The translations under genes and the position numbers were made by a program. From Kiritimatiellia bacterium (GTDB lineage Bacteria; Verrucomicrobiota; Kiritimatiellia; RFP12; UBA1067), in assembly GCA_017507065.1 (NCBI GenBank), contig JAFWBO010000063.1:1-44179 (forward strand): a stretch of DNA of 44,179 bases. The letters run 5' to 3'. This document shows positions 10,210-43,906 of the stretch, piece by piece (position 1 is the stretch's first letter; each line of letters starts with the position of its first letter). The notes under the pieces are model-generated. The model ran no database searches. It was not told where the DNA came from and saw only the letters and a list, made by a program, of their open reading frames with translations.

Positions 10210-10294
10210 TGGTGCTCGGGGCGGGACTCGAACCCGCAAGGATCTCTCCACATGCACCTCAAGCATGCGTGTCTGCCAATTTCACCACCCGAGC
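10210..10294 (-). tRNA. tRNA-Leu (anticodon GAG), CCA encoded
   Basis: Hand-folded at 85 nt: acceptor GCTCGGG/CCCGAGC, anticodon arm CATGC-TTGAGGT-GCATG, long variable arm, T arm GCGGG-TTCGAGT-CCCGC, discriminator A, CCA. Confidence 0.9.
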
Positions 10295-16400: not shown

Positions 16401-16485
16401 GCACCCGTGGTGAAATTGGCATACACGCCAGATTCAGGTTCTGGTGCCGCAAGGTGTGTGGGTTCAAATCCCACCGGGTGCACCA
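16401..16485 (+). tRNA. tRNA-Leu (anticodon CAG), CCA encoded
   Basis: Hand-folded at 85 nt: acceptor GCACCCG/CGGGTGC, anticodon arm CCAGA-TTCAGGT-TCTGG, long variable arm, T arm GTGGG-TTCAAAT-CCCAC, A, CCA. Confidence 0.9.
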
Positions 16486-16494
16486 AAACTATAC

Positions 16495-16569
16495 GGCCCC
16501 TTCGTCTATCGGCTAGGACATCTGGTTCTCATCCAGGCAAGAGGAGTTCGACTCTCCTAGGGGCTGCCA
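16495..16569 (+). tRNA. tRNA-Glu (anticodon CTC), CCA encoded
   Basis: 75 nt, closely parallel to the bacterial tRNA-Glu layout (GGCCCCTTCGTCTA...AGGAG-TTCGACT-CTCCT-AGGGGCT-G-CCA). The anticodon loop is TTCTCAT. The acceptor closes with a G1-U72 wobble as I folded it. Confidence 0.85.
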
Positions 16570-35675: not shown

Positions 35676-36314
35676 TCAATCTGATTTCAACTTTTTTTGC
35701 GGATTTTTTGTATCCTGGCGGTTTCTCGCCGTGATAAGCCTCTCGAGGAGCTCGACCGATTTTATCCCGTGCGATGTTTCGATGGAACTGCTGACATCGA
35801 TTATATCGGCTCCAGTCGCTTCGGCGAGGGCGATGTTCTTCTCCGAAATCGCTCCGGCGAGAACGGTTCTGGCGCCCGCGGCCTTGAGTCTGGGGACGAG
35901 AGACCAGTCTGCGAGACGGCTTTCGTTTCCGATTCGCCCGTCGACGAGGACGACATCCGGCGCTGAGCAGCTGCCGATATCGCCGGAAAAAAGCCGCCAC
36001 ACTTCGAAGCCTTCCTTCTTGAGGGCGTGCACCGTTCCGTCGTCCGCGTTCCAGTGGAGCTGGACTATATCGAGCGAGGCGCGGCGTGCGGAGGCTGCTA
36101 TTTCTTCCGCTCCGCCGCATGTGAACACGCCGGCGAATCGCGGTGCGCGGAGAGCGGATTGCCTCGTCTGCGACACGATGATGCCGGCTTCCTCCGCGCC
36201 GATCCGCCGCACTGAGCCGTCGGCGAACACGAAGCCGAGAAAGTCAGCCCCGAGACGCGCGGCTTCGATAGCGAACGCGCCGTCGGTGACGCCGCACACT
36301 TTCAGGAGAGACAC
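35676..36314 (-). CDS. trpF: phosphoribosylanthranilate isomerase
   Basis: GTG start at 36314 (GGAG 7 nt upstream), overlapping the trpA 3' end by 13 nt. LLKVCGVT..., DFLGFVF and ...VLAGAI are TrpF-like. The Arg-rich upstream part of the track ORF (to 37052) is an out-of-frame overlap of trpA. Confidence 0.85.
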   Translation of the reverse strand: MSLLKVCGVTDGAFAIEAARLGADFLGFVFADGSVRRIGAEEAGIIVSQTRQSALRAPRFAGVFTCGGAEEIAASARRASLDIVQLHWNADDGTVHALKKEGFEVWRLFSGDIGSCSAPDVVLVDGRIGNESRLADWSLVPRLKAAGARTVLAGAISEKNIALAEATGADIIDVSSSIETSHGIKSVELLERLITARNRQDTKNPQKKLKSD

Positions 36315-37060
36315 GGTTTTTCTCCACGCATCAGTTTTTTCACGAGCGCTGAACCAACGATGTATCCGTCGGCGTGGCGCGAGATTTCCTCGGCCTGCGC
36401 TTTCGTCGAAATGCCGAATCCGGCGGCGACGGGAAGGTGCGAAACAGATCGGATTTCTTCGAGCCTCGCCGCGAGATCTTCGGGAAGGCTCGTCCTTTCT
36501 CCTGTCGTGCCTTTTACGGTCATCACGTACAGAAACGAGTTTTCGAGACCCTCGCCGATCTCTTTTACGCGTTCGAGCGGCGTGTTCGGGGCTATGAGAG
36601 GTATATAGCCTATTCCTTTCGGAGAGAGAGCCTGGAGAAGTTCTCCGCGCTCTTCGAGCGGAAGGTCTACGACGAGCACCGCGTCTATCCCCGCATCCGC
36701 CGCCGCATCGGCGAATCTCCCGGTTCCGAACGAGAAAATCGGATTGTAGTAGGAGAAGAGAACGAATCCCGTATCCGGATGGCGCTCGCGAAGGCGTTTG
36801 GCCGCTGCGAGAGATTTCTCGAGCGTCATGCCGTGCCTGATGGCTTCGTAGGAAGCCGATCTTATCACGCCGCCGTCGGCGAACGGGTCGGAGAAGGGCA
36901 CTCCTATCTCCACTATGTCGGCTCCGGCCGCTATCACGTCGCCCACTGCCTTTTCGCCGGCCTCTGGAGTCGGGCAGCCCATGGTGAGATAAGCGGTGAA
37001 CGCTCCTCGCGATTCGGCCTTCGCTTTCCTGAACGCCTCTGTTATTCTGCATCGTTTCAT
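36302..37060 (-). CDS. trpA: tryptophan synthase alpha chain
   Basis: Start at [10 protein letters not shown] (ATGA overlap with the trpB stop). [16 protein letters not shown] and ...GFGIST... motifs are present; 252 aa. Confidence 0.92.
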
Positions 37061-38235
37061 ATCGAATTCCTTTCTTTGTACAGCGTCACGCTCTGCATGT
37101 CTTTGTCTCCGCGTCCAGAGAGATTCACGAGGATGATGCCGTCTTTCCCGAGGCTTGGCGCGCGCTTGATCGCTTCGGCTACCGCATGGCTCGATTCGAG
37201 CGCCGGAATTATCCCTTCGAACCTGCACAGCATGTCGAATGCGGCGATCGCTTCGTCGTCTGTTATCACGGTGTATTCGGCGCGGCCCGTGTCGTGCAGG
37301 AAGCAGTGTTCCGGACCCACCCCGGGATAGTCGAGGCCGGCCGACACGGAGTAGGTGTCGAGTATGTTGCCGTCGGCCGTTTCGAGAAGCATCGTCTTCG
37401 CCCCGTGCAGCACGCCCGGGCGTCCGCCGTTTATGGAAGCGGCGTGTTCGCCGCTCTCGAGCCCTTTCCCGCCTGCCTCGACGCCTACGAGTTTCACTTC
37501 TTTGTCGCCCATGAAACCGGCGAAAAGGCCTATGGCGTTGGATCCTCCGCCGACACAGGCGATCGCTTCGTCGGGGAGACGGGAGAATTTCTCGAGGCAC
37601 TGGCGCCTGGCTTCAGCCCCTATCACGCTCTGGAAATCTTTGACCATTTCCGGATACGGGGCCGGCCCGGCGGCGGTGCCGATCACGTAGAAGGTGTCGT
37701 CGCAGTTCGACACCCAGTCGCGCAGGGCTTCATTCATGGCGTCTTTGAGCGTCGCGCTCCCTTCGCTTACGGCATGGATGCGTGCGCCGAGCATTTTCAT
37801 TCTCTCTACGTTCGGCGACTGCCTTTCTACGTCGATCGCCCCCATGTAGACGTCACACGGCATCCCGAAGAGCGCGGCGACAGTCGCCGTGGCGACTCCG
37901 TGCATCCCGGCTCCGGTTTCGGCGATGAGCCGCTTCTTGCCCATCCTCCGCGCGAGAAGAGCCTGCCCAACAGTGTTGTTTATCTTGTGCGCGCCCGTAT
38001 GGTTCAGGTCTTCGCGTTTGAGCAGTATCTTCGCGCCTCCGAGATGTTCGGACAGCCGCCTGGCGTACGTCAGCGGGCTTTCGCGCCCCACGTACTCGCG
38101 GAGGATTTCGCCGAATTCCCGCTGGAACGCAGGGTCGGCTTTCGCTTCGACATATGCCGCCTCGAGCTCTTTCAGCGGAGCGACGAGCGTTTCGGCCACA
38201 TATTGCCCGCCGTATTGTCCGTAATGTTTTTTCAT
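37057..38235 (-). CDS. trpB: tryptophan synthase beta chain
   Basis: Start at [13 protein letters not shown] (AAAGGGAAC upstream). [14 protein letters not shown] carries the PLP lysine; 392 aa. An alternative ATG at 38271 would add 12 aa. Confidence 0.93.
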
Positions 38236-38272
38236 GGTGTTCCCTTTGTTTTTCCGTGCCGTTTCCGGCATG

Positions 38273-39055
38273 TCAGTTTCCGCGCAGCAGGCATTTGAGT
38301 TTTTCGCCTGGAGAGGCGCTTTTCATAAGCGCCGTCCCGACGAGAAACGCGTCGGCTCCGGCCGCTTCGGCTCGTGCGATGTCTTCGGGCGAATGCATGC
38401 CCGATTCAGCCACGCGGATGCAGTTTCCCGGTATCGCCGCCGTCAGGCGCCCGAAGAGCTCCGTGTTGGTGCTGAAATTTCCGAGATCGCGGCAGTTTAC
38501 TCCGACGATATCGGCGCCTGCTGCTGCGGCCGTGGCGATTTCGTCTTCCGAATGCGTTTCCACGAGCGCCGCGATTCCCGTTTTTTCCGCAAAGGCGAGA
38601 AGAGAGGCGAGTTCGCCTGCGCCGAGCGCGGCTGCGATGAGAAGCACCGCGTCCGCTCCCGCCGCGCGCGCTTCCGCGATCTGGTACGGCGTCGTGACGA
38701 AATCCTTCCAGAGGAGAGGGAGCGAGCACGTCTTGCGCACGCGCTTGAGATAGTCGCCGCTTCCGAGAAAACGGTGCGGCTCGCAGAGGACCGAGAGCGC
38801 GGCCGCCCCCGCCTCTTCGAGTTCGCGCGCGAGTTCTTCGGGGCGGAAGTCTTCTCGTATCAGGCCCTCGCTCGGGCTCGCCTTTTTGAGTTCCGCTATT
38901 ATTCTTCTGCCTTTTCCCGTCAGAGCTCCGGCGAAGTCGCGCGGCGGGGGGGCTTTCTCCGCCAGACGCATGATTTCGCCGATAGGCACGGTGGATGCGC
39001 GTTTTTCTGCATCGGTCCGACGCATGTGCACCAGTTCTTCGAGCACGCCTTTCAT
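38273..39055 (-). CDS. trpC: indole-3-glycerol phosphate synthase
   Basis: Start at MKGVLEEL (ATGA overlap with the trpG/D stop). [20 protein letters not shown] and VGVNCRDL motifs are present; 260 aa. Confidence 0.9.
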
Positions 39056-40662
39056 TTGAGCGCCTCCTTCATGGCTGCGAGTTTTGCCGCGGCGCGCCCG
39101 GAGTCTATCGATTCCCCGGCAAGGGCGAGGGCTGCGGAGTAGTCTCCGGTGATGCCGCCTGCGATTATCGCGGCCGCGGCGTTTTCTATCGCCGCCGCGC
39201 GGCACGCTCCCGTTTCTTTGCCGTCCAGGACGGCAAGGAGCTTTTCGGCGTTGGCCGCGCTGTCCGCGCCCCTTATCGCCGAATTCGGAAAACGCTTCCC
39301 GTATGCGCCTCCGGCGTCGAGAAGCGTGTTTTTCACCGAGCCGTTTTCGAGCGACGACACGAAAGTGAAGCCGTCCGGGCTTATTTCGTCGAGACCGCCG
39401 GCCCCGGTGACGACTATCGCGCGCGTCGAACCGAGAAGTTTGAGGGCGTTGGCCATGGTTATGGCGAGTTTTTCCTGCGGCACGCCGATGACATGCCGCC
39501 TGACCGATGCCGGGTTCGTGAGAGGCCCGATGAGGTTGAAGAGCGTCCTGAAGCCGAGCATGCGTCTCACGCCGGCGGCGAATTTCATCGCCGGATGCAG
39601 GTTTTTAGCGAACAGAAAGCCTACGCCCGTCCGTTTTATGCATTCGGCCGTCTTCTCCGCTCCGGCGCCGAGATTTATCCCGAGCGCGGCGAGGACGTCG
39701 GCCGATCCGCACTGCGAAGTGGACGCGACGTTGCCGTGTTTCGCCACCGTCACGCCGGCTCCTGCGGCGATGAATGCCGCGCATGTCGAAACGTTGAACG
39801 AGTTGGATCCGTCGGCGCCCGTTCCGACTATGTCTACCGGGTCGAGCCCGCCGAGATCTATTTTCACGGCCGCTTCCCGCATGGCTCTCGCAGCACCGGC
39901 GAGTTCTTCCGGGGTGACGGGGTTTTTCGCGATTGCCGTCAGGAATGCCGCGAGTTCGCTTTCTTCGACCTCTCCTTCGAGTATCGAAGAGAAAAATCCT
40001 TCGGCTTCGTTTTCGTCCGGTGTCGCACCATCGAGCGCGCGCATGGTCACGGCCCGGCGCACGGTGCGCGGCATCGTCTTGCGCGTTCGTCTGCCGGTCG
40101 CGAACTCCACTATGTTGGCGATCTGGCGCATCCCTTCCTGCGTGCCCACCGATTCAGGATGGTACTGCACGGATTCTATCGCGAGCGTTTTGTGCCGCAG
40201 GCCCATTATTTCTCCGTCTTCGCTTTCCGCGGTGACGGCGAGTTCGTCCGGCAGAGAGGCGCGGTCGACGGCGAGAGAATGGTAGCGCATCGCGGCAAAC
40301 CCCTGTTCTACGCCGGCGAACACGCCTTTCCCGTCATGCCGCAGGCGGCTTGTCTTTCCGTGCATTATCTTCTTCGCCCTGACGATTTTTCCGCCGAACG
40401 CCTGCGCAATCGCCTGGTGGCCCAGGCATATGCCGAAAATCGGCGTTTTCCCGGCGAACGCCCTGATTGCATCGAGCGTGACGCCCGCGCTGTCCGGATT
40501 CCCTGGGCCTGGCGAGATCACGACGGCTTCCGGCTTCATCGCCAGCAGGGCGCCGACATCCGCTTTGTCGTTGCGCACGGTTTTGACTTCCGCGCCGAAC
40601 GAGGCGATGGCGTGCACGATGTTGTAAGTGAACGAATCGTAGTTGTCTATCACCAGTATCAT
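39052..40662 (-). CDS. trpGD: bifunctional anthranilate synthase component II (glutamine amidotransferase) / anthranilate phosphoribosyltransferase
   Basis: 536 aa. The N-terminal GATase has MILVIDNYDSFTYN, GICLGHQ and the HPES triad. The C-terminal TrpD has DIVGTGADGSNSFNVST, KHGN and NLIGPLTNP. It is one continuous ORF with ATGA overlap onto trpE. Confidence 0.92.
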   Translation of the reverse strand: MILVIDNYDSFTYNIVHAIASFGAEVKTVRNDKADVGALLAMKPEAVVISPGPGNPDSAGVTLDAIRAFAGKTPIFGICLGHQAIAQAFGGKIVRAKKIMHGKTSRLRHDGKGVFAGVEQGFAAMRYHSLAVDRASLPDELAVTAESEDGEIMGLRHKTLAIESVQYHPESVGTQEGMRQIANIVEFATGRRTRKTMPRTVRRAVTMRALDGATPDENEAEGFFSSILEGEVEESELAAFLTAIAKNPVTPEELAGAARAMREAAVKIDLGGLDPVDIVGTGADGSNSFNVSTCAAFIAAGAGVTVAKHGNVASTSQCGSADVLAALGINLGAGAEKTAECIKRTGVGFLFAKNLHPAMKFAAGVRRMLGFRTLFNLIGPLTNPASVRRHVIGVPQEKLAITMANALKLLGSTRAIVVTGAGGLDEISPDGFTFVSSLENGSVKNTLLDAGGAYGKRFPNSAIRGADSAANAEKLLAVLDGKETGACRAAAIENAAAAIIAGGITGDYSAALALAGESIDSGRAAAKLAAMKEALK

Positions 40663-42080
40663 TGCAGTTCCTCCGCTTCTTTCAAGGCTTCGAACACGGC
40701 TTTCGATTTGTTGATCGTTTCGTCGTATTCCCTGTCGGGGTCGGAATCGGCGGTTATGCCCGCTCCGGCGCGCATCGTCACCGATTTTCCTTCTTTCACC
40801 AGCGTGCGTATGGCTATGGCGAAATCCATTCCTCCGGTGAACGAGAAGTATCCGGCTGCACCTCCGTATATTCCGCGCGGAGATTTTTCGATCTCGGCGA
40901 TTATCTCCATCGCGCGGATTTTCGGCGCGCCGGAAAGGGTGCCTGCGGGGAACACCGCCTTCACGAGATCAGACGGCGTGTGATTTTCCGCGAGCGTCCC
41001 TTTGACGGAACTGACCAGATGCATGACATGGGAGAATTTTTCGACGCGTGCGAAAGATTCCACTTTGACGCTTCCCGTCTCTGCGACTCTGCCGAGATCG
41101 TTGCGGCCCAGATCTACGAGCATCACGTGCTCGGCGTTTTCCTTTTCGTCGCTTTTGAGTTCTCTTTCGAGCGCGGAGTCCTCGGCCGCGGTTTTCCCGC
41201 GAGGCCGCGTGCCGGCGATGGGCGATGTTTCCATGACGCGTCCTTCGAGCTTCACGAGTTCTTCTGGAGAAGAGCCTATGAGCGTTTTCCGGCCTATCCG
41301 CATGAAGAATTCGTACGGAGAGGGGTTGATGGTCCTGAGCGCCCTGTAGAGCGAAAGGTCGGAAGAGCGCGTGACGCCGGAGAATTTCTGCGACGGCACG
41401 ATCTGTATCGCCTCGCCCGCGGCTATCGCGTCTTTGCACTGCGATACCATTGCGCGGAACTCGTCTTTCGACATTTCCGGGACGAGGACGGCCCCGCCGG
41501 CGGAACACTCCGCTTCGCCATTGCGTCTGACGGTTTCGGCGATCGATTCGGCGCTCAGGAGTTTTCTGCACAGCCGCTCTATTTCGGCCATGGCTTCGCC
41601 GTAGCCGCCCTCTCCTTTGACTACGGCAACGGTGACCGTTCCGCGCACATCGTCGAAAACGAGGAATTTTTCGCAGATGAGAAAGTCCATAGGCGGCGTG
41701 CCGCTTTCGCATTTCACCTTGTTTGCGAGTTTTGGTTCGAAAATTCCGGCCGCGTCGTATGCGATATATCCTGCCGCGCCGCCCTGGAAGGGCGGAAGCT
41801 CCGGGGCGGGGACGAACTCGTTCGCAGCAAAAAGGGCGTCGATGCGCTCGAGCGCGTCTTTCCCTGCTATCCGTCCAGACGGTTCGACCGCGAGAAACGA
41901 GTATCGTCCCCTCGCCTCTCCGCCAGATACGCTTTCGAGAAGTACGGCCTCTTCGTCTTCCCGCAGGCGCGAAAGCGCGGCGACGGGAGTTTCCCTGTCT
42001 GCGAGGAATTCCTTGAATACCGGCGTTCTTCGCCCCGAGGCGGTGCGGCGAGCGAATTCGTCTTCTGTCAGGATTTTCAT
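40659..42080 (-). CDS. trpE: anthranilate synthase component I
   Basis: 473 aa. LLESV..., VDLGRNDLGRV, GTLSGAPK and ...GGAAGYFSFTG... motifs are present, with AAGGAG 7 nt upstream of the ATG. Confidence 0.93.
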   Translation of the reverse strand: MKILTEDEFARRTASGRRTPVFKEFLADRETPVAALSRLREDEEAVLLESVSGGEARGRYSFLAVEPSGRIAGKDALERIDALFAANEFVPAPELPPFQGGAAGYIAYDAAGIFEPKLANKVKCESGTPPMDFLICEKFLVFDDVRGTVTVAVVKGEGGYGEAMAEIERLCRKLLSAESIAETVRRNGEAECSAGGAVLVPEMSKDEFRAMVSQCKDAIAAGEAIQIVPSQKFSGVTRSSDLSLYRALRTINPSPYEFFMRIGRKTLIGSSPEELVKLEGRVMETSPIAGTRPRGKTAAEDSALERELKSDEKENAEHVMLVDLGRNDLGRVAETGSVKVESFARVEKFSHVMHLVSSVKGTLAENHTPSDLVKAVFPAGTLSGAPKIRAMEIIAEIEKSPRGIYGGAAGYFSFTGGMDFAIAIRTLVKEGKSVTMRAGAGITADSDPDREYDETINKSKAVFEALKEAEELQ

Positions 42081-42106
42081 TTTTCCGGCTCCTTTTTATG
42101 TTGTTT

Positions 42107-43228
42107 TCAGGCGTAAGCACCGAGAAACTGGAGGGCTTCTATTTCAGGATCCTGCGAAAGCTCCGAGAGAAGGGCCAGTGCAGCCGTGCCCGATGCGGAC
42201 GATTCGAATTCGAACGTGAAGCGGAATTCGAAATCCATGCCGGGGATCGGGCGCGATTCGAGTTTGGTGAGATTCACCCCGGCCGCGGCGAATTTGGCGA
42301 GAATGGAGCTGAGCGATCCCGGGCGGTGCGGAAGGGTGAGCATTATGCCGAATTTGTCGGCGTCCGGCGTTATTTCTATTTCGCGCGAGATGCAGATGAA
42401 GCGCGTGTAGTTGAAGGTGTTGTCCGAGACGTTTTCGGCAAGAATGTCGAGATCGTATATTCCGGCGCACGCGCGTGAAGCGATGACCGCCTGCTCTGCA
42501 GTGCCTTTCTCCGCGAGATCGCGCGCCGCCGTCGCCGTGTTGGGCGCCGGGACGGTTTTCACGCCCGGCATGGCCTTGAGGAAGTCTCGGCATTGCGCCA
42601 GCGCGTGAGGATGGCTGGCCACTTCCTTTATTCCGGCGAGGGACGCGCCGCGCCGTCCGAGCAGGACATGGTTGACTTTGACGCGTTGCGACCGGACGAT
42701 GTGGAAATGGTGTTTCACCATGAGATCGTAGACCTGCGCCACCGAACCGGCAGATGAATTTTCAATCGGCAGAACGCCGTACGGGCATACTCCTTTTTCC
42801 ACCATTTCGAAGACGCTTTCGAAATCGCGGAGGAAGACGATGGTGGGAGCGGCGAACATGAGGGCCGTGGCGGCCGCGGCATATGAGCCGTCGGTTCCCT
42901 GGCAGGCCACGAAGGCCCTCTGCGGCAGCGGTTTCGACTTCTGTGCGGCCGCTGTTATAGTGGATACGAGCGGCGACGGGCCGCGCACGTTTGCGCGGAT
43001 TCGCGCTTTGGAAAGTTCAATCATCGTGGAGAAGAGAGTTTTCATCTCGCGGCCGAGCCCGTCGCCTGCGATTTCGAGCGCGCGGGAAACGCTCTCCCTT
43101 TCCTGTTCGCCGTCGCATACTTGATCGCCTCTTTCTCTCGCCGACTGCGCTTCGGCGAGCGAGATGTCCATCCTCTGCTTGAAGAGGCGGGCGATTTCTT
43201 CATCGGTTTTCATCAGCTGGTCGTTCAT
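42107..43228 (-). CDS. pheA: bifunctional chorismate mutase / prephenate dehydratase (P-protein)
   Basis: Start at MNDQLMKTDEEIARLF (AAGGA upstream). It has an N-terminal chorismate-mutase helix region, a PDT domain (VACQGTDGSY..., LPIENSSAGSV, TRFI) and an ACT domain with TKLESRPIPG; 373 aa. Confidence 0.88.
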   Translation of the reverse strand: MNDQLMKTDEEIARLFKQRMDISLAEAQSARERGDQVCDGEQERESVSRALEIAGDGLGREMKTLFSTMIELSKARIRANVRGPSPLVSTITAAAQKSKPLPQRAFVACQGTDGSYAAAATALMFAAPTIVFLRDFESVFEMVEKGVCPYGVLPIENSSAGSVAQVYDLMVKHHFHIVRSQRVKVNHVLLGRRGASLAGIKEVASHPHALAQCRDFLKAMPGVKTVPAPNTATAARDLAEKGTAEQAVIASRACAGIYDLDILAENVSDNTFNYTRFICISREIEITPDADKFGIMLTLPHRPGSLSSILAKFAAAGVNLTKLESRPIPGMDFEFRFTFEFESSASGTAALALLSELSQDPEIEALQFLGAYA

Positions 43229-43262
43229 TTGTTTCCTTTTTGGTGGTTGTTTGTTCGCGTGT

Positions 43263-43304
43263 AAAAAAAATCGGGCCGAGTCTCGTTTCTTCGAGATTCG
43301 GCCC
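43263..43304 (-). terminator. intrinsic terminator of the pheA-trp leader (attenuator)
   Basis: The minus strand reads GGGCCGAATCTCG-AAGAAA-CGAGACTCGGCCC (12 of 13 positions paired) followed by GA and T8. It ends 34 nt before the pheA ATG and lies downstream of the promoter and leader ORF. Confidence 0.85.
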
Positions 43305-43335
43305 TGGATTTCCCTGCTGGCGGATACTTCAGCGA

Positions 43336-43413
43336 CTATGCCGCGAAGCGCGCTGCGAGACCGAATCCGCAGCGACGCCACCAGCAGTTGCTAAAGTATT
43401 CCCTGTTTGACAT
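43336..43413 (-). CDS. candidate leader peptide with tandem Trp codons (MSNREYFSNCWWRRCGFGLAARFAA)
   Basis: Hand-translated 25-codon ORF, too short for the ORF track. It runs from ATG 43413-43411 to TAG 43338-43336, with TGG TGG at 43383-43378. Six of 25 residues are aromatic. It sits between an extended -10 box and the terminator upstream of pheA-trpE. No SD is present and the ATG is about 8 nt after the -10. Confidence 0.6.
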   Translation of the reverse strand: MSNREYFSNCWWRRCGFGLAARFAA

Positions 43414-43420
43414 GCCGCAT

Positions 43421-43429
43421 ATTATATCA
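43421..43429 (-). promoter_or_regulatory. extended -10 promoter element (TGATATAAT) for the pheA-trp leader
   Basis: The minus strand reads TGATATAAT (43429-43421) in an AT-rich island. The -35 region is poor (A/T run). Confidence 0.5.
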
Positions 43430-43496
43430 TAATTTTTTTCGAAAAAACGTGAAAAGACAAAAAAGTTTTGTTTTTTTTTCCGGAGCGTTTAGCTCC

Positions 43497-43526
43497 TTGA
43501 CATGATTAGACGTCTGATGGTATAAT
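43497..43526 (+). promoter_or_regulatory. sigma70-type promoter for the ABM gene (TTGACA-18 nt-TATAAT, TGn)
   Basis: TTGACA at 43497-43502 and TGGTATAAT at 43518-43526. It is divergent from the pheA-trp promoter and leaves a ~100-nt 5' UTR. Confidence 0.6.
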
Positions 43527-43630
43527 GTGCGCCGATAAAACACGATGCTGTCATGCTGATAAGGCAGTCAAGTGCTTTGTGATCTTTGTGTGCTTTGCGG
43601 ATAAAAACAGAAAAAGAAAGGAAAAGTGAA

Positions 43631-43906
43631 ATGATACGGATCAACTGTTTTCTGGCGACCAAGGAAGGCCGCCGCGAAGAGGCGCTCGAAGCGGCCAAGG
43701 CGCTGACCGCCGTCTCGCTCACGCAGGACGGATGCGTTGCCTACGACGTGTTCGAGAGCGCGACTCGCCCCGGCGTCCTCGTTATCTGCGAGACGTGGCG
43801 CGATCAGGCGGCGCTCGACGCGCATTCCGCCAGCGAGCCGTTCAAGAAGTACGTTGGCGTGATGAGCGAGACGAGCGAGCTCAAGATCGAGAGCTTCAAT
43901 TTCTGA
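43631..43906 (+). CDS. antibiotic-biosynthesis-monooxygenase (ABM) domain protein
   Basis: Start at MIRINCFL (AAAGGAAAAG upstream); 91 aa. ...DGCVAYDVFES...ICETWRDQAALDAHSASEPFKKY is the typical ABM ferredoxin-like fold signature. Confidence 0.8.
   Translation: MIRINCFLATKEGRREEALEAAKALTAVSLTQDGCVAYDVFESATRPGVLVICETWRDQAALDAHSASEPFKKYVGVMSETSELKIESFNF

Follow-up and report, generated by a model that had tools for sequence, protein, structure and literature searches.

The region between pheA, on the minus strand of contig JAFWBO010000063.1 from a Kiritimatiellia bacterium, and a divergent gene of the ABM family on the plus strand (43631-43906, Pfam PF03992) raises the question of how an operon combining phenylalanine (Phe) and tryptophan (Trp) genes is controlled, and whether the short open reading frame (ORF) and the hairpins lying in this intergenic stretch (43229-43630) are its control element. 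We refer to the whole stretch of DNA that was analysed, 44,179 nucleotides (nt), as the window. With a probability of roughly 0.8, the leader is a Trp-responsive, ribosome-mediated transcription attenuator of the trpL type acting on pheA-trpE-trpGD-trpC-trpB-trpA-trpF: sequence, covariation and folding establish two RNA states of the leader, and in our model the position of a translating ribosome would decide between them.

The elements of the leader are as follows, numbered so that leader nt 1 opens the leader start codon and the window coordinate is 43414 minus nt.

43421-43429, minus strand: extended -10 element TGATATAAT (direct reading).
43336-43413, minus strand: leader ORF of 25 codons plus TAG, encoding MSNREYFSNCWWRRCGFGLAARFAA, with three Phe and one Tyr (ORF list).
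43378-43383, minus strand: tandem Trp codons TGG TGG, codons 11-12, the regulatory codons (direct reading).
43389-43402, minus strand: 5' strand of the outer helix, nt 12-25, codons 4-9 including Tyr6 and Phe7 (minimum free energy (MFE) fold).
43347-43379, minus strand: inner '1:2' hairpin, nt 35-67, -20.2 kcal/mol (MFE fold).
43358-43368, minus strand: antiterminator 5' strand GGAUUCGGUCU, nt 46-56, codons 16-19, Gly-Phe-Gly (pairs with 43294-43304).
43322-43333, minus strand: 3' strand of the outer helix, nt 81-92, just past the stop codon (MFE fold and duplex test).
43314-43323, minus strand: CCGCCAGCAG, complementary to the Trp-codon segment 43378-43387 (duplex energy).
43273-43304, minus strand: intrinsic terminator hairpin GGGCCGAATCTCG/CGAGACTCGGCCC, nt 110-141, -22.6 kcal/mol (direct reading and folding).
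43263-43270, minus strand: U8 tract of the terminator (direct reading).

A preliminary description of this DNA had proposed the -10 box, the 25-codon ORF, the TGG TGG pair, the hairpin and the U8 tract, and the strand reading and the ORF list place all of them where it had put them. The three pairings that it had spotted by eye (CTGCTGGTGG/CCGCCAGCAG, CGCTGCG/CGCAGCG and GGATTCGGTCT/GGGCCGAATCT) are likewise real, as judged from duplex energies and pair counts.

The leader belongs to a family. TrpE relatives sampled from 14 clusters (~80% identity), together with close metagenome matches, include 11 homologous and mutually distinct leaders (L048, L049, L128, L131, L132, L133, L138, L142, L143, L145 and L146) on related Kiritimatiellia metagenome and metagenome-assembled genome (MAG) contigs, giving with the window leader the 12-sequence alignment A1. 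Rumen and gut MAGs labelled Kiritimatiellae, Verrucomicrobia or Lentisphaerae account for nearly all PheA and TrpE relatives with 50-70% identity, which places the window in Kiritimatiellia; the metagenome scan with TrpE provided three usable close relatives, its other loci (39-47% identity) belonging to other groups. None of the 47 loci of a PheA-based genome scan has a leader with adjacent Trp codons, and these loci instead showed a Phe-rich leader family and a shifting position of pheA. A regular-expression search of the collected loci for further copies returned only the known ones.

The leader places a short ORF with at least two adjacent cognate codons ahead of a biosynthetic operon, and this arrangement is general in the family. 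The preliminary description had suggested checking whether relatives keep the hairpin and lose the ORF or its Trp codons; the opposite is found, the ORF and two or three tandem Trp codons being present in 12/12 leaders. The ORF has 22-27 codons (exactly 25 in nine of the 12), and its codons 10-13 hold WW in three leaders and WWW in nine, the TGGTGG columns (T31-G36) being invariant in the alignment. Codons 1-10 differ freely among the leaders. Up to codon 22 the reading frame contains no stop in any of the 12 leaders, versus 13 and four stops in the other two frames, and ahead of the Trp codons the length changes only once, by a 3-nt gap in L131 that preserves the frame. The stop-free frame, the in-frame indel and a conserved spacing between start codon and promoter (see below) are indirect evidence that the ORF is translated.

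The RNA encoded by the same stretch is strongly structured. The window leader has a folding energy of -73.5 kcal/mol, compared with -51.6 +/- 4.1 in shuffled sequences (z = -5.35; 0/200 shuffles as good). An intrinsic terminator separates the leader ORF from the first structural gene: its stem (nt 110-122/129-141) has 13 base pairs with one A-C mismatch, followed by two bases and then U8. The internal A-C mismatch is presumably why a simple terminator scan did not detect this hairpin (43304-43273). In 12/12 leaders there is a terminator of -19 to -27 kcal/mol with a U-rich tract after the hairpin, 85.6% of the terminator cells of the alignment are paired, and four pairs show compensatory changes.

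These observations bear on the alternative that nothing is regulated here and that a chance short ORF stands beside an ordinary terminator or a structured 5' untranslated region (UTR). Short ORFs and hairpins are indeed common in GC-rich DNA, but the hairpin has no co-directional upstream gene to terminate, the neighbour being divergent, the fold is far stronger than that of shuffled sequences, and the whole architecture is kept in 12/12 sequences with covariation, so that we give this alternative almost no weight.

The terminator 5' arm (43294-43304, nt 110-120) is common to the terminator and to a second pairing, with GGAUUCGGUCU, that uses this arm and thereby excludes the terminator. In the window this GGATTCGGTCT/GGGCCGAATCT duplex has eight Watson-Crick and three G-U pairs (-15.6 kcal/mol). 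Across the 12 sequences, 97.7% of the 132 cells of the antiterminator (nt 46-56/110-120) are paired; sliding the 3' partner by one column lowers this to 64% and 54%, and beyond that to less than 30%. In L143 and L146 the antiterminator changes from U-A to C-G at two pairs, turning the peptide Gly-Phe-Gly into Gly-Ser-Gly or Gly-Pro-Gly; since these compensatory changes alter the peptide, selection acts on the pairing and not on the peptide. The eighth base of the terminator 5' arm (A in 11/12) is unpaired in the terminator in 9/12 leaders, yet paired in the antiterminator. The antiterminator role that the preliminary description had assigned to GGAUUCGGUCU is thus borne out by the pairing frequency and by the compensatory changes.

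The antiterminator strand in turn lies at the apex of the inner hairpin, the strands of which (nt 35-47 and 56-67) begin on the 5' side within the last bases of the second Trp codon. This hairpin is the RNAalifold consensus of the 12 sequences, with nine pairs of which three show compensatory changes, and its helix nt 40-46/57-63 is 88% paired. Terminator and inner hairpin together hold 16 double-change cells, a number reached by 0/500 shuffles. Around it, the outer helix pairs 43389-43402 with 43322-43333 in the window and is significant against shuffles in 8/12 leaders, each time with a different sequence (for example UACUUUAGC/GCUGAAGUA, UGCUUUAGC/GCUGAAGCA and CUACUUCU/AGAAGUAG). The conserved anti-antiterminator is therefore the hairpin nt 35-67, with the outer helix in most homologues.

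The preliminary description had favoured another helix, between the Trp-codon segment and CCGCCAGCAG. In the window this is a strong duplex (CTGCTGGTGG/CCGCCAGCAG, 10 base pairs, -18.2 to -20.3 kcal/mol; p=0.002), but it is not significant in any of the 11 relatives, and we rejected it as a conserved anti-antiterminator: it is a local extra outside the conserved design.

A terminator/antiterminator alternative could also be operated by a protein or a ligand, as in a T-box, a TRAP-like or a riboswitch-like switch, the short ORF being incidental. Such a switch would account for an alternative that is conserved on its own, and RNA pairing does explain many of the residues of the 'peptide'. Against it, no Rfam leader family, including Trp_leader (RF00513) and T-box, matches positions 43100-43700 at E<=10, and no family reaches its gathering score in 19 related leader loci. 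A TRAP site of the Bacillus type consists of nine to eleven (G/U)AG triplets spaced 2-3 nt apart; the 151-nt leader holds only three such triplets, 54-55 nt apart, hence no TRAP array. The frame, ORF length, start position and tandem Trp codons are moreover all conserved, with no in-frame stops, and the Trp codons stand exactly where a stalled ribosome frees the antiterminator. This makes a protein or ligand switch highly improbable, and ribosome-mediated attenuation the preferred reading.

The effect of the ribosome was modelled by folding transcripts cut just before the terminator 3' arm, with a 28-nt ribosome footprint (A-site nt -15 to +12) forced to be unpaired, and by recording P(AT), the mean probability of the 11 antiterminator pairs. 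In the window leader P(AT) is 0.00 when there is no ribosome and when the A site is on codons 2-6, 0.35 on Phe7 and 0.56 on Ser8; it rises to 0.87-0.89 on codons 9-12, with 0.89 and 0.87 on the two Trp codons (W11 and W12), and falls to 0.59 on codon 13 and to 0.00 on codons 14-23, because the ribosome then covers the antiterminator strand. It returns to 0.58 on codon 24 and to 0.87-0.89 on codon 25 and the stop codon. A ribosome on the regulatory codons thus opens the sequestering pairing in the window, and a masked stretch is common to 12/12 leaders (P(AT) <=0.05, mostly 0.00, from the third to about the tenth codon past the first Trp). In these models the Trp codons mark a narrow window of positions where a stalled ribosome would open the sequestering hairpin and leave the antiterminator strand free. 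In the constrained folding that the preliminary description had called for, done on the cut transcripts, a stall at the Trp codons does free the antiterminator, and a ribosome at the stop codon frees it too.

Could the leader sense Phe and/or tyrosine (Tyr) besides Trp, as would suit a pheA-trp operon? Under such a scheme, partial read-through would follow when a stall at Tyr6 or Phe7 opens the outer helix, and full read-through when a Trp stall opens the inner hairpin. In its favour, 11/12 leaders have an aromatic codon (for the most part Phe) among codons 5-9, the modelled stalls at Phe7 and Ser8 give the intermediate P(AT) values above (L145 behaves similarly), the leader codons of relatives track operon content (Phe-rich before stand-alone pheA, mixed Phe, Trp and Tyr in L141), and the Phe-Tyr-Phe leader of Corynebacterium glutamicum aroR responds to Phe limitation (PMC11802643). 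However, the same upstream aromatic codons are present where pheA takes third place in the operon or is absent from the stretch seen, and their UUU/UUC triplets lie in the 5' strand of the covarying outer helix, pairing with GAAG/AAAG past the stop, so that RNA structure alone could explain them. Modelled stalls at Tyr6, Phe17 and Phe23 give a P(AT) of 0.00 (at Phe17 and Phe23 because the ribosome then covers the antiterminator strand), Phe17 is replaced by Ser or Pro with compensatory RNA changes, and the Phe and Tyr codons are single and not in runs. Two-input sensing is on balance unlikely, and the nested sensor that it would imply, with Tyr/Phe codons in the outer helix and Trp codons at the inner hairpin, is doubtful to the same degree; if true, Phe or Tyr limitation would give partial, and Trp limitation full, read-through of pheA and the trp operon. 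The mixed Trp/Phe/Tyr sensing that the preliminary description had proposed for the combined operon is thus not supported: the same leader is found whatever the position of pheA, and the stalls at Phe and Tyr codons are mostly ineffective.

How the ribosome would reach these codons depends on where the transcript begins. The -10 element of the window is a perfect TGnTATAAT, with a poor -35 (CGTTTT/ACGTTT at 17/18 nt) and an A/T-rich tract upstream; a promoter scan chose the overlapping hexamer TATGAT, with TTTTCA or TTCACG as -35. The -10 hexamer is separated from the leader ATG (43413) by seven bases, which leave no room for a Shine-Dalgarno sequence. In all 12 leaders a TGn plus TAnnnT box ends 7-10 nt ahead of the start codon (ATG in 10/12, GTG in 2/12), and a TTGnnn -35 is present at 17-18 nt spacing in 11/12, the window being the exception. 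Transcription usually begins ~7 nt past the -10 hexamer. From this rule and the conserved spacing, the 5' end of the RNA is predicted to lie at the start codon or 1-3 nt before it in every leader, and in the window probably at the A of the ATG or 1 nt before, making the leader leaderless. The promoter spacing, as a sequence feature, is strong indirect support for leaderless translation. Among all TGnTAnnnT boxes of the 44-kb window, only that of the leader has a start codon 6-10 nt downstream, and a scan of the 44 kb found no other leaderless-looking start. Upstream of pheA in three relatives (L009, ~2430-2450; L033, ~2415-2438; L034, ~2430-2453) there is a TGGTAnAAT box 8-11 nt before the pheA start and no Shine-Dalgarno sequence, which suggests that ordinary genes in this clade may have leaderless or near-leaderless mRNAs.

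A more conventional arrangement would have transcription start at a promoter further upstream, the leader ORF being translated internally without a Shine-Dalgarno sequence and the TGnTAnAAT box being secondary or something else. The poor -35 of the window, the alternative hexamer TATGAT offered by the scan tool, the A/T-rich divergent promoter region of ~200 nt upstream, the GUG start required in two homologues and the existence of a second leader type with a 5' UTR of 15-16 nt (L136, L141; see below) would all be compatible with it. On the other hand, a TGn -10 at 7-10 nt in 12/12 diverged sequences with a TTG-type -35 in 11/12 is hard to account for other than as a promoter, 7-10 nt is too short for a Shine-Dalgarno sequence, and leaderless AUG/GUG leader peptides are documented elsewhere (PMC4007540; bioRxiv 10.1101/834739). 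We regard a conventional start as improbable, and the preliminary description is supported in its proposal of a possibly leaderless ORF by the position of the -10 box in 12/12 leaders. The variant, which it had called unusual, is not without precedent, given reports from Deinococcus deserti, Corynebacterium diphtheriae and mycobacteria.

Taken together, Trp-dependent attenuation would work as follows. Transcription would start from the extended -10 promoter at the leader AUG or one base before it, and the leader would be translated with neither a 5' UTR nor a Shine-Dalgarno sequence. Untranslated RNA would fold into a long hairpin (nt 12-92), the apex of which buries GGAUUCGGUCU, and the terminator (nt 110-141) with its U8 would form; alternatively, GGAUUCGGUCU would pair with the terminator 5' arm as antiterminator. 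When charged tRNA-Trp is scarce, the ribosome would stall on Trp codon 11 or 12 (A site) and cover nt ~16-46, opening the 5' strand of the hairpin and leaving nt 46-56 free, so that the antiterminator could form once the terminator 5' arm is transcribed and RNA polymerase would read into pheA. When Trp is plentiful, the ribosome would advance and physically cover the antiterminator strand at codons 14-23, and after its release the long hairpin would re-form; by either route the terminator would form and transcription would end about 35 nt before pheA.

Several points weigh against this mechanism. The covariation of the antiterminator is modest (three double-change cells in two sequences), most of its columns being highly conserved and the 12 sequences being related. 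When the full-length leader is folded at equilibrium, the terminator wins in every state of 10/12 leaders, and such folding, also carried out with a stalled ribosome in place, was accordingly discarded as a test of the switch, the terminator persisting nearly always. The switch would therefore have to be kinetic, decided during transcription; in the classical E. coli attenuator the choice is likewise kinetic. A ribosome at the last sense codon or the stop leaves the antiterminator strand unmasked (P(AT) 0.87-0.89), so that in Trp excess termination would have to rely on timing or on the RNA refolding once the ribosome is released. The ribosome-free truncated RNA favours the antiterminator at equilibrium in 7/12 leaders (P(AT) 0.5-0.99), which means that the '1:2' hairpin is not uniformly dominant. 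The window promoter lacks a good -35 element, and two homologues would need initiation at a 5'-terminal GUG. Finally, the transcription start, the translation of the ORF, the terminated RNA of ~150 nt and the response to Trp are all features that we infer. The central claim of the preliminary description, a ribosome-mediated attenuator before pheA-trpE, nonetheless stands on the ORF, the tandem Trp codons, the terminator and the antiterminator, each kept in 12/12 leaders.

The genes that the leader would control are the following.

35676-43228, minus strand: the regulated operon pheA-trpE-trpGD-trpC-trpB-trpA-trpF (Pfam scan).
43228-42107, minus strand: pheA, with CM_2, PDT and ACT domains (Pfam scan).
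42080-40659, minus strand: trpE (Pfam scan).
40662-39052, minus strand: trpG-trpD fusion (Pfam scan).
About 39205-38273, minus strand: trpC (Pfam scan).
38271-37057, minus strand: trpB (Pfam scan).
About 37052-36302, minus strand: trpA (position and reading frame only).
About 36300-35676, minus strand: trpF (Pfam scan).

Gaps between the operon genes downstream of the leader do not exceed 26 nt, the length of the pheA-trpE gap. The pheA ATG is at 43228-43226 (not 43229, a one-base correction), 34 nt from the U8 tract, a distance that the preliminary description had right. The ORF list also contains a 424-codon ORF with a GTG start (43381-42107, minus strand) that remains open in the pheA frame across the leader, the terminator and the U tract. 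As the true start of PheA this GTG was rejected, since its frame would cross the terminator and U8. Further grounds for rejecting this N-terminal extension are that homologues align from residue 1 of the 43228 start, that the CM_2 domain begins at residue 4, that a Shine-Dalgarno sequence, AAAGGAAAC, stands upstream of 43228, and that relatives carry the leader ahead of trpE and not of pheA. A gene caller could take the longer ORF for PheA and so hide the leader, the ORF of which gene callers currently miss.

The position of pheA in relation to the leader varies among Kiritimatiellia, where this gene (CM-PDT) is found first, third or last in the trp operon or separate from it. In 11/11 relatives trpE comes immediately after the leader. 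L129, L131 and L143 have pheA as the third gene of the operon, and in L146 pheA follows an amidohydrolase gene; it is not in the stretch seen in L049, L132, L133, L138 and L145, and is at the operon end or stand-alone in other relatives. Considering all loci, it comes after trpGD in L008, L012, L129, L131 and L143, and after trpB and following genes in L003, L005, L020, L021 and L023; in several genomes it follows the gene for DAHP (3-deoxy-D-arabino-heptulosonate 7-phosphate) synthase. Among the cases seen, only the window has pheA between leader and trpE. As the leader stands directly before trpE in 11/11 relatives, it is a Trp leader with pheA as a movable passenger, which, by its placement between attenuator and trpE in this genome, would come under Trp control.

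Other TrpE loci depart from this pattern. L050 and L135 have no leader, the upstream gene nearly abutting trpE. In L140 (~370-516), whose TrpE is the same as in L138 and L139, the match to the leader begins only at CGTGGCGCTTGGGATTCGG, just past the Trp codons; upstream of this point the sequence is unrelated and has no promoter or leader start. L140 could be an assembly chimera or a rearrangement that cut the leader.

Other leader types occur in the same clade. Stand-alone pheA genes of relatives are preceded by a different leader, with a Phe-rich short ORF followed by a terminator of the GACCCCCGC/GCGGGGGTC type (L014, 43-96; L016, 2298-2381; L018, 2288-2341; L024, 2267-2347; L031, 2306-2389; L035, 1086-1157), encoding peptides such as MNKYFDFRFFFFFASLA, MRNEKEFFGFSFFLARL and MQKQNMFGFYFGFYFAFWERKAG; the L016 leader has 8 nt between the end of its -10 box and the ATG. 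By their sequences these look like a pheL-type attenuator family. A second leader type is represented by two mutually homologous loci with a 5' UTR of 15-16 nt: L136 (2794-2892, before trpE) encodes MKEPFNRTIKVFGSTYWRSWCAFSGAWRPWFG with four scattered Trp, and L141 (368-466, before aroG-pheA-trpE-trpGD-trpC-trpB) encodes MKEVNGRTAQTYSSLFWGYWRGYFAFSDAGRL with mixed Phe, Trp and Tyr, so that in these two loci the codon content of the leader appears to track the content of the operon. With three leader types seen (Phe-rich before pheA, WWW before trpE, mixed Phe/Trp/Tyr before aroG-pheA-trpE), Kiritimatiellia might, at low probability, possess a set of leaderless or near-leaderless attenuators whose codons are retuned as genes enter or leave aromatic operons.

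The divergent ABM-family gene has its own promoter at 43497-43526 (plus strand; TTGACA-18-TATAAT, 12/12 consensus, with a TG extension), a 5' UTR of ~100 nt and a normal Shine-Dalgarno sequence, and long A and T runs lie between the two divergent promoters (about 43430-43490). The only Rfam matches at gathering score within the window are three tRNA genes (10213-10294, minus strand; 16401-16482 and 16495-16566, plus strand), two of them with long variable arms.

The conserved, previously unannotated Kiritimatiellia leader is probably a leader-peptide attenuator, new as a sequence family and for its lineage, and known in its mechanism and start mode. A full-text literature search found no description of attenuators in Kiritimatiellae or Verrucomicrobia, and this would be a leader-peptide attenuator family in Kiritimatiellia (Planctomycetes-Verrucomicrobia-Chlamydiae (PVC) group), and the third lineage, after Deinococcus and Actinobacteria, with attenuation leader peptides apparently translated leaderless. 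It bears on how ribosome and RNA polymerase would be synchronized without Shine-Dalgarno-mediated loading. The finding of pheA as a movable passenger of Trp-controlled operons predicts cross-regulation of Phe synthesis by Trp in gut and rumen organisms, and the 12-sequence alignment could seed a covariance model for annotating such leaders in MAGs.

The closest mechanistic parallel is the E. coli trpL attenuator (Rfam RF00513; Yanofsky 1981; summarised in PMC4007540 and PMC11802643). In the two systems, tandem Trp codons lie within a short ORF ahead of trpE-led biosynthetic genes, the 1:2, 2:3 (antiterminator) and 3:4 (terminator plus U tract) pairings exclude one another, and a stall at the Trp codons frees region 2. 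Unlike trpL, the window leader, which has no sequence or covariance-model similarity to it (E<=10), is predicted to be leaderless, with no Shine-Dalgarno sequence or 5' UTR, and its ORF continues for 13 codons beyond the Trp codons and includes region 2; in the model it is therefore the translating ribosome that would mask the antiterminator strand, and a ribosome at the stop codon would not. The first regulated gene is here pheA, and the host belongs to the PVC group and not to the proteobacteria. E. coli pheL-pheA and C. glutamicum aroR are similar in being leader-peptide attenuators before pheA (CM-PDT) or DAHP synthase, whereas the window leader belongs to a Trp-leader family and has only single Phe and Tyr codons, not placed where a stall frees the antiterminator.

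In its start, the leader resembles those of D. deserti, for which 14 leaderless leader peptides are predicted and the trpEGD leader has its transcription start 1 nt upstream of the start codon (PMC4007540): in both, the transcript starts, or is predicted to start, at or 1 nt before an AUG/GUG upstream of amino-acid biosynthesis genes. The phylum is a different one, as far as can be judged there is no relationship between the sequences, and the D. deserti starts were mapped by differential RNA sequencing (dRNA-seq), while that of the window follows from promoter spacing. Among Actinobacteria, transcription of the C. diphtheriae ilvB leader begins at the leader start position (PMC5784534), trp leaders include MTNMNAHNWWWRA of C. 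diphtheriae (PMC5784534) and trpL of C. glutamicum, which also has aroR (PMC11802643), and in mycobacteria attenuators with leaderless polycysteine upstream ORFs have been shown experimentally to respond to amino acid (bioRxiv 10.1101/834739). Actinobacterial trp leaders have a W-W-W-R motif in common with the Kiritimatiellia leaders, but their peptides are shorter, ending soon past the WWW, and the RNA structures are non-homologous (no Rfam match here), so that the WWWR likeness between the two groups is probably convergent.

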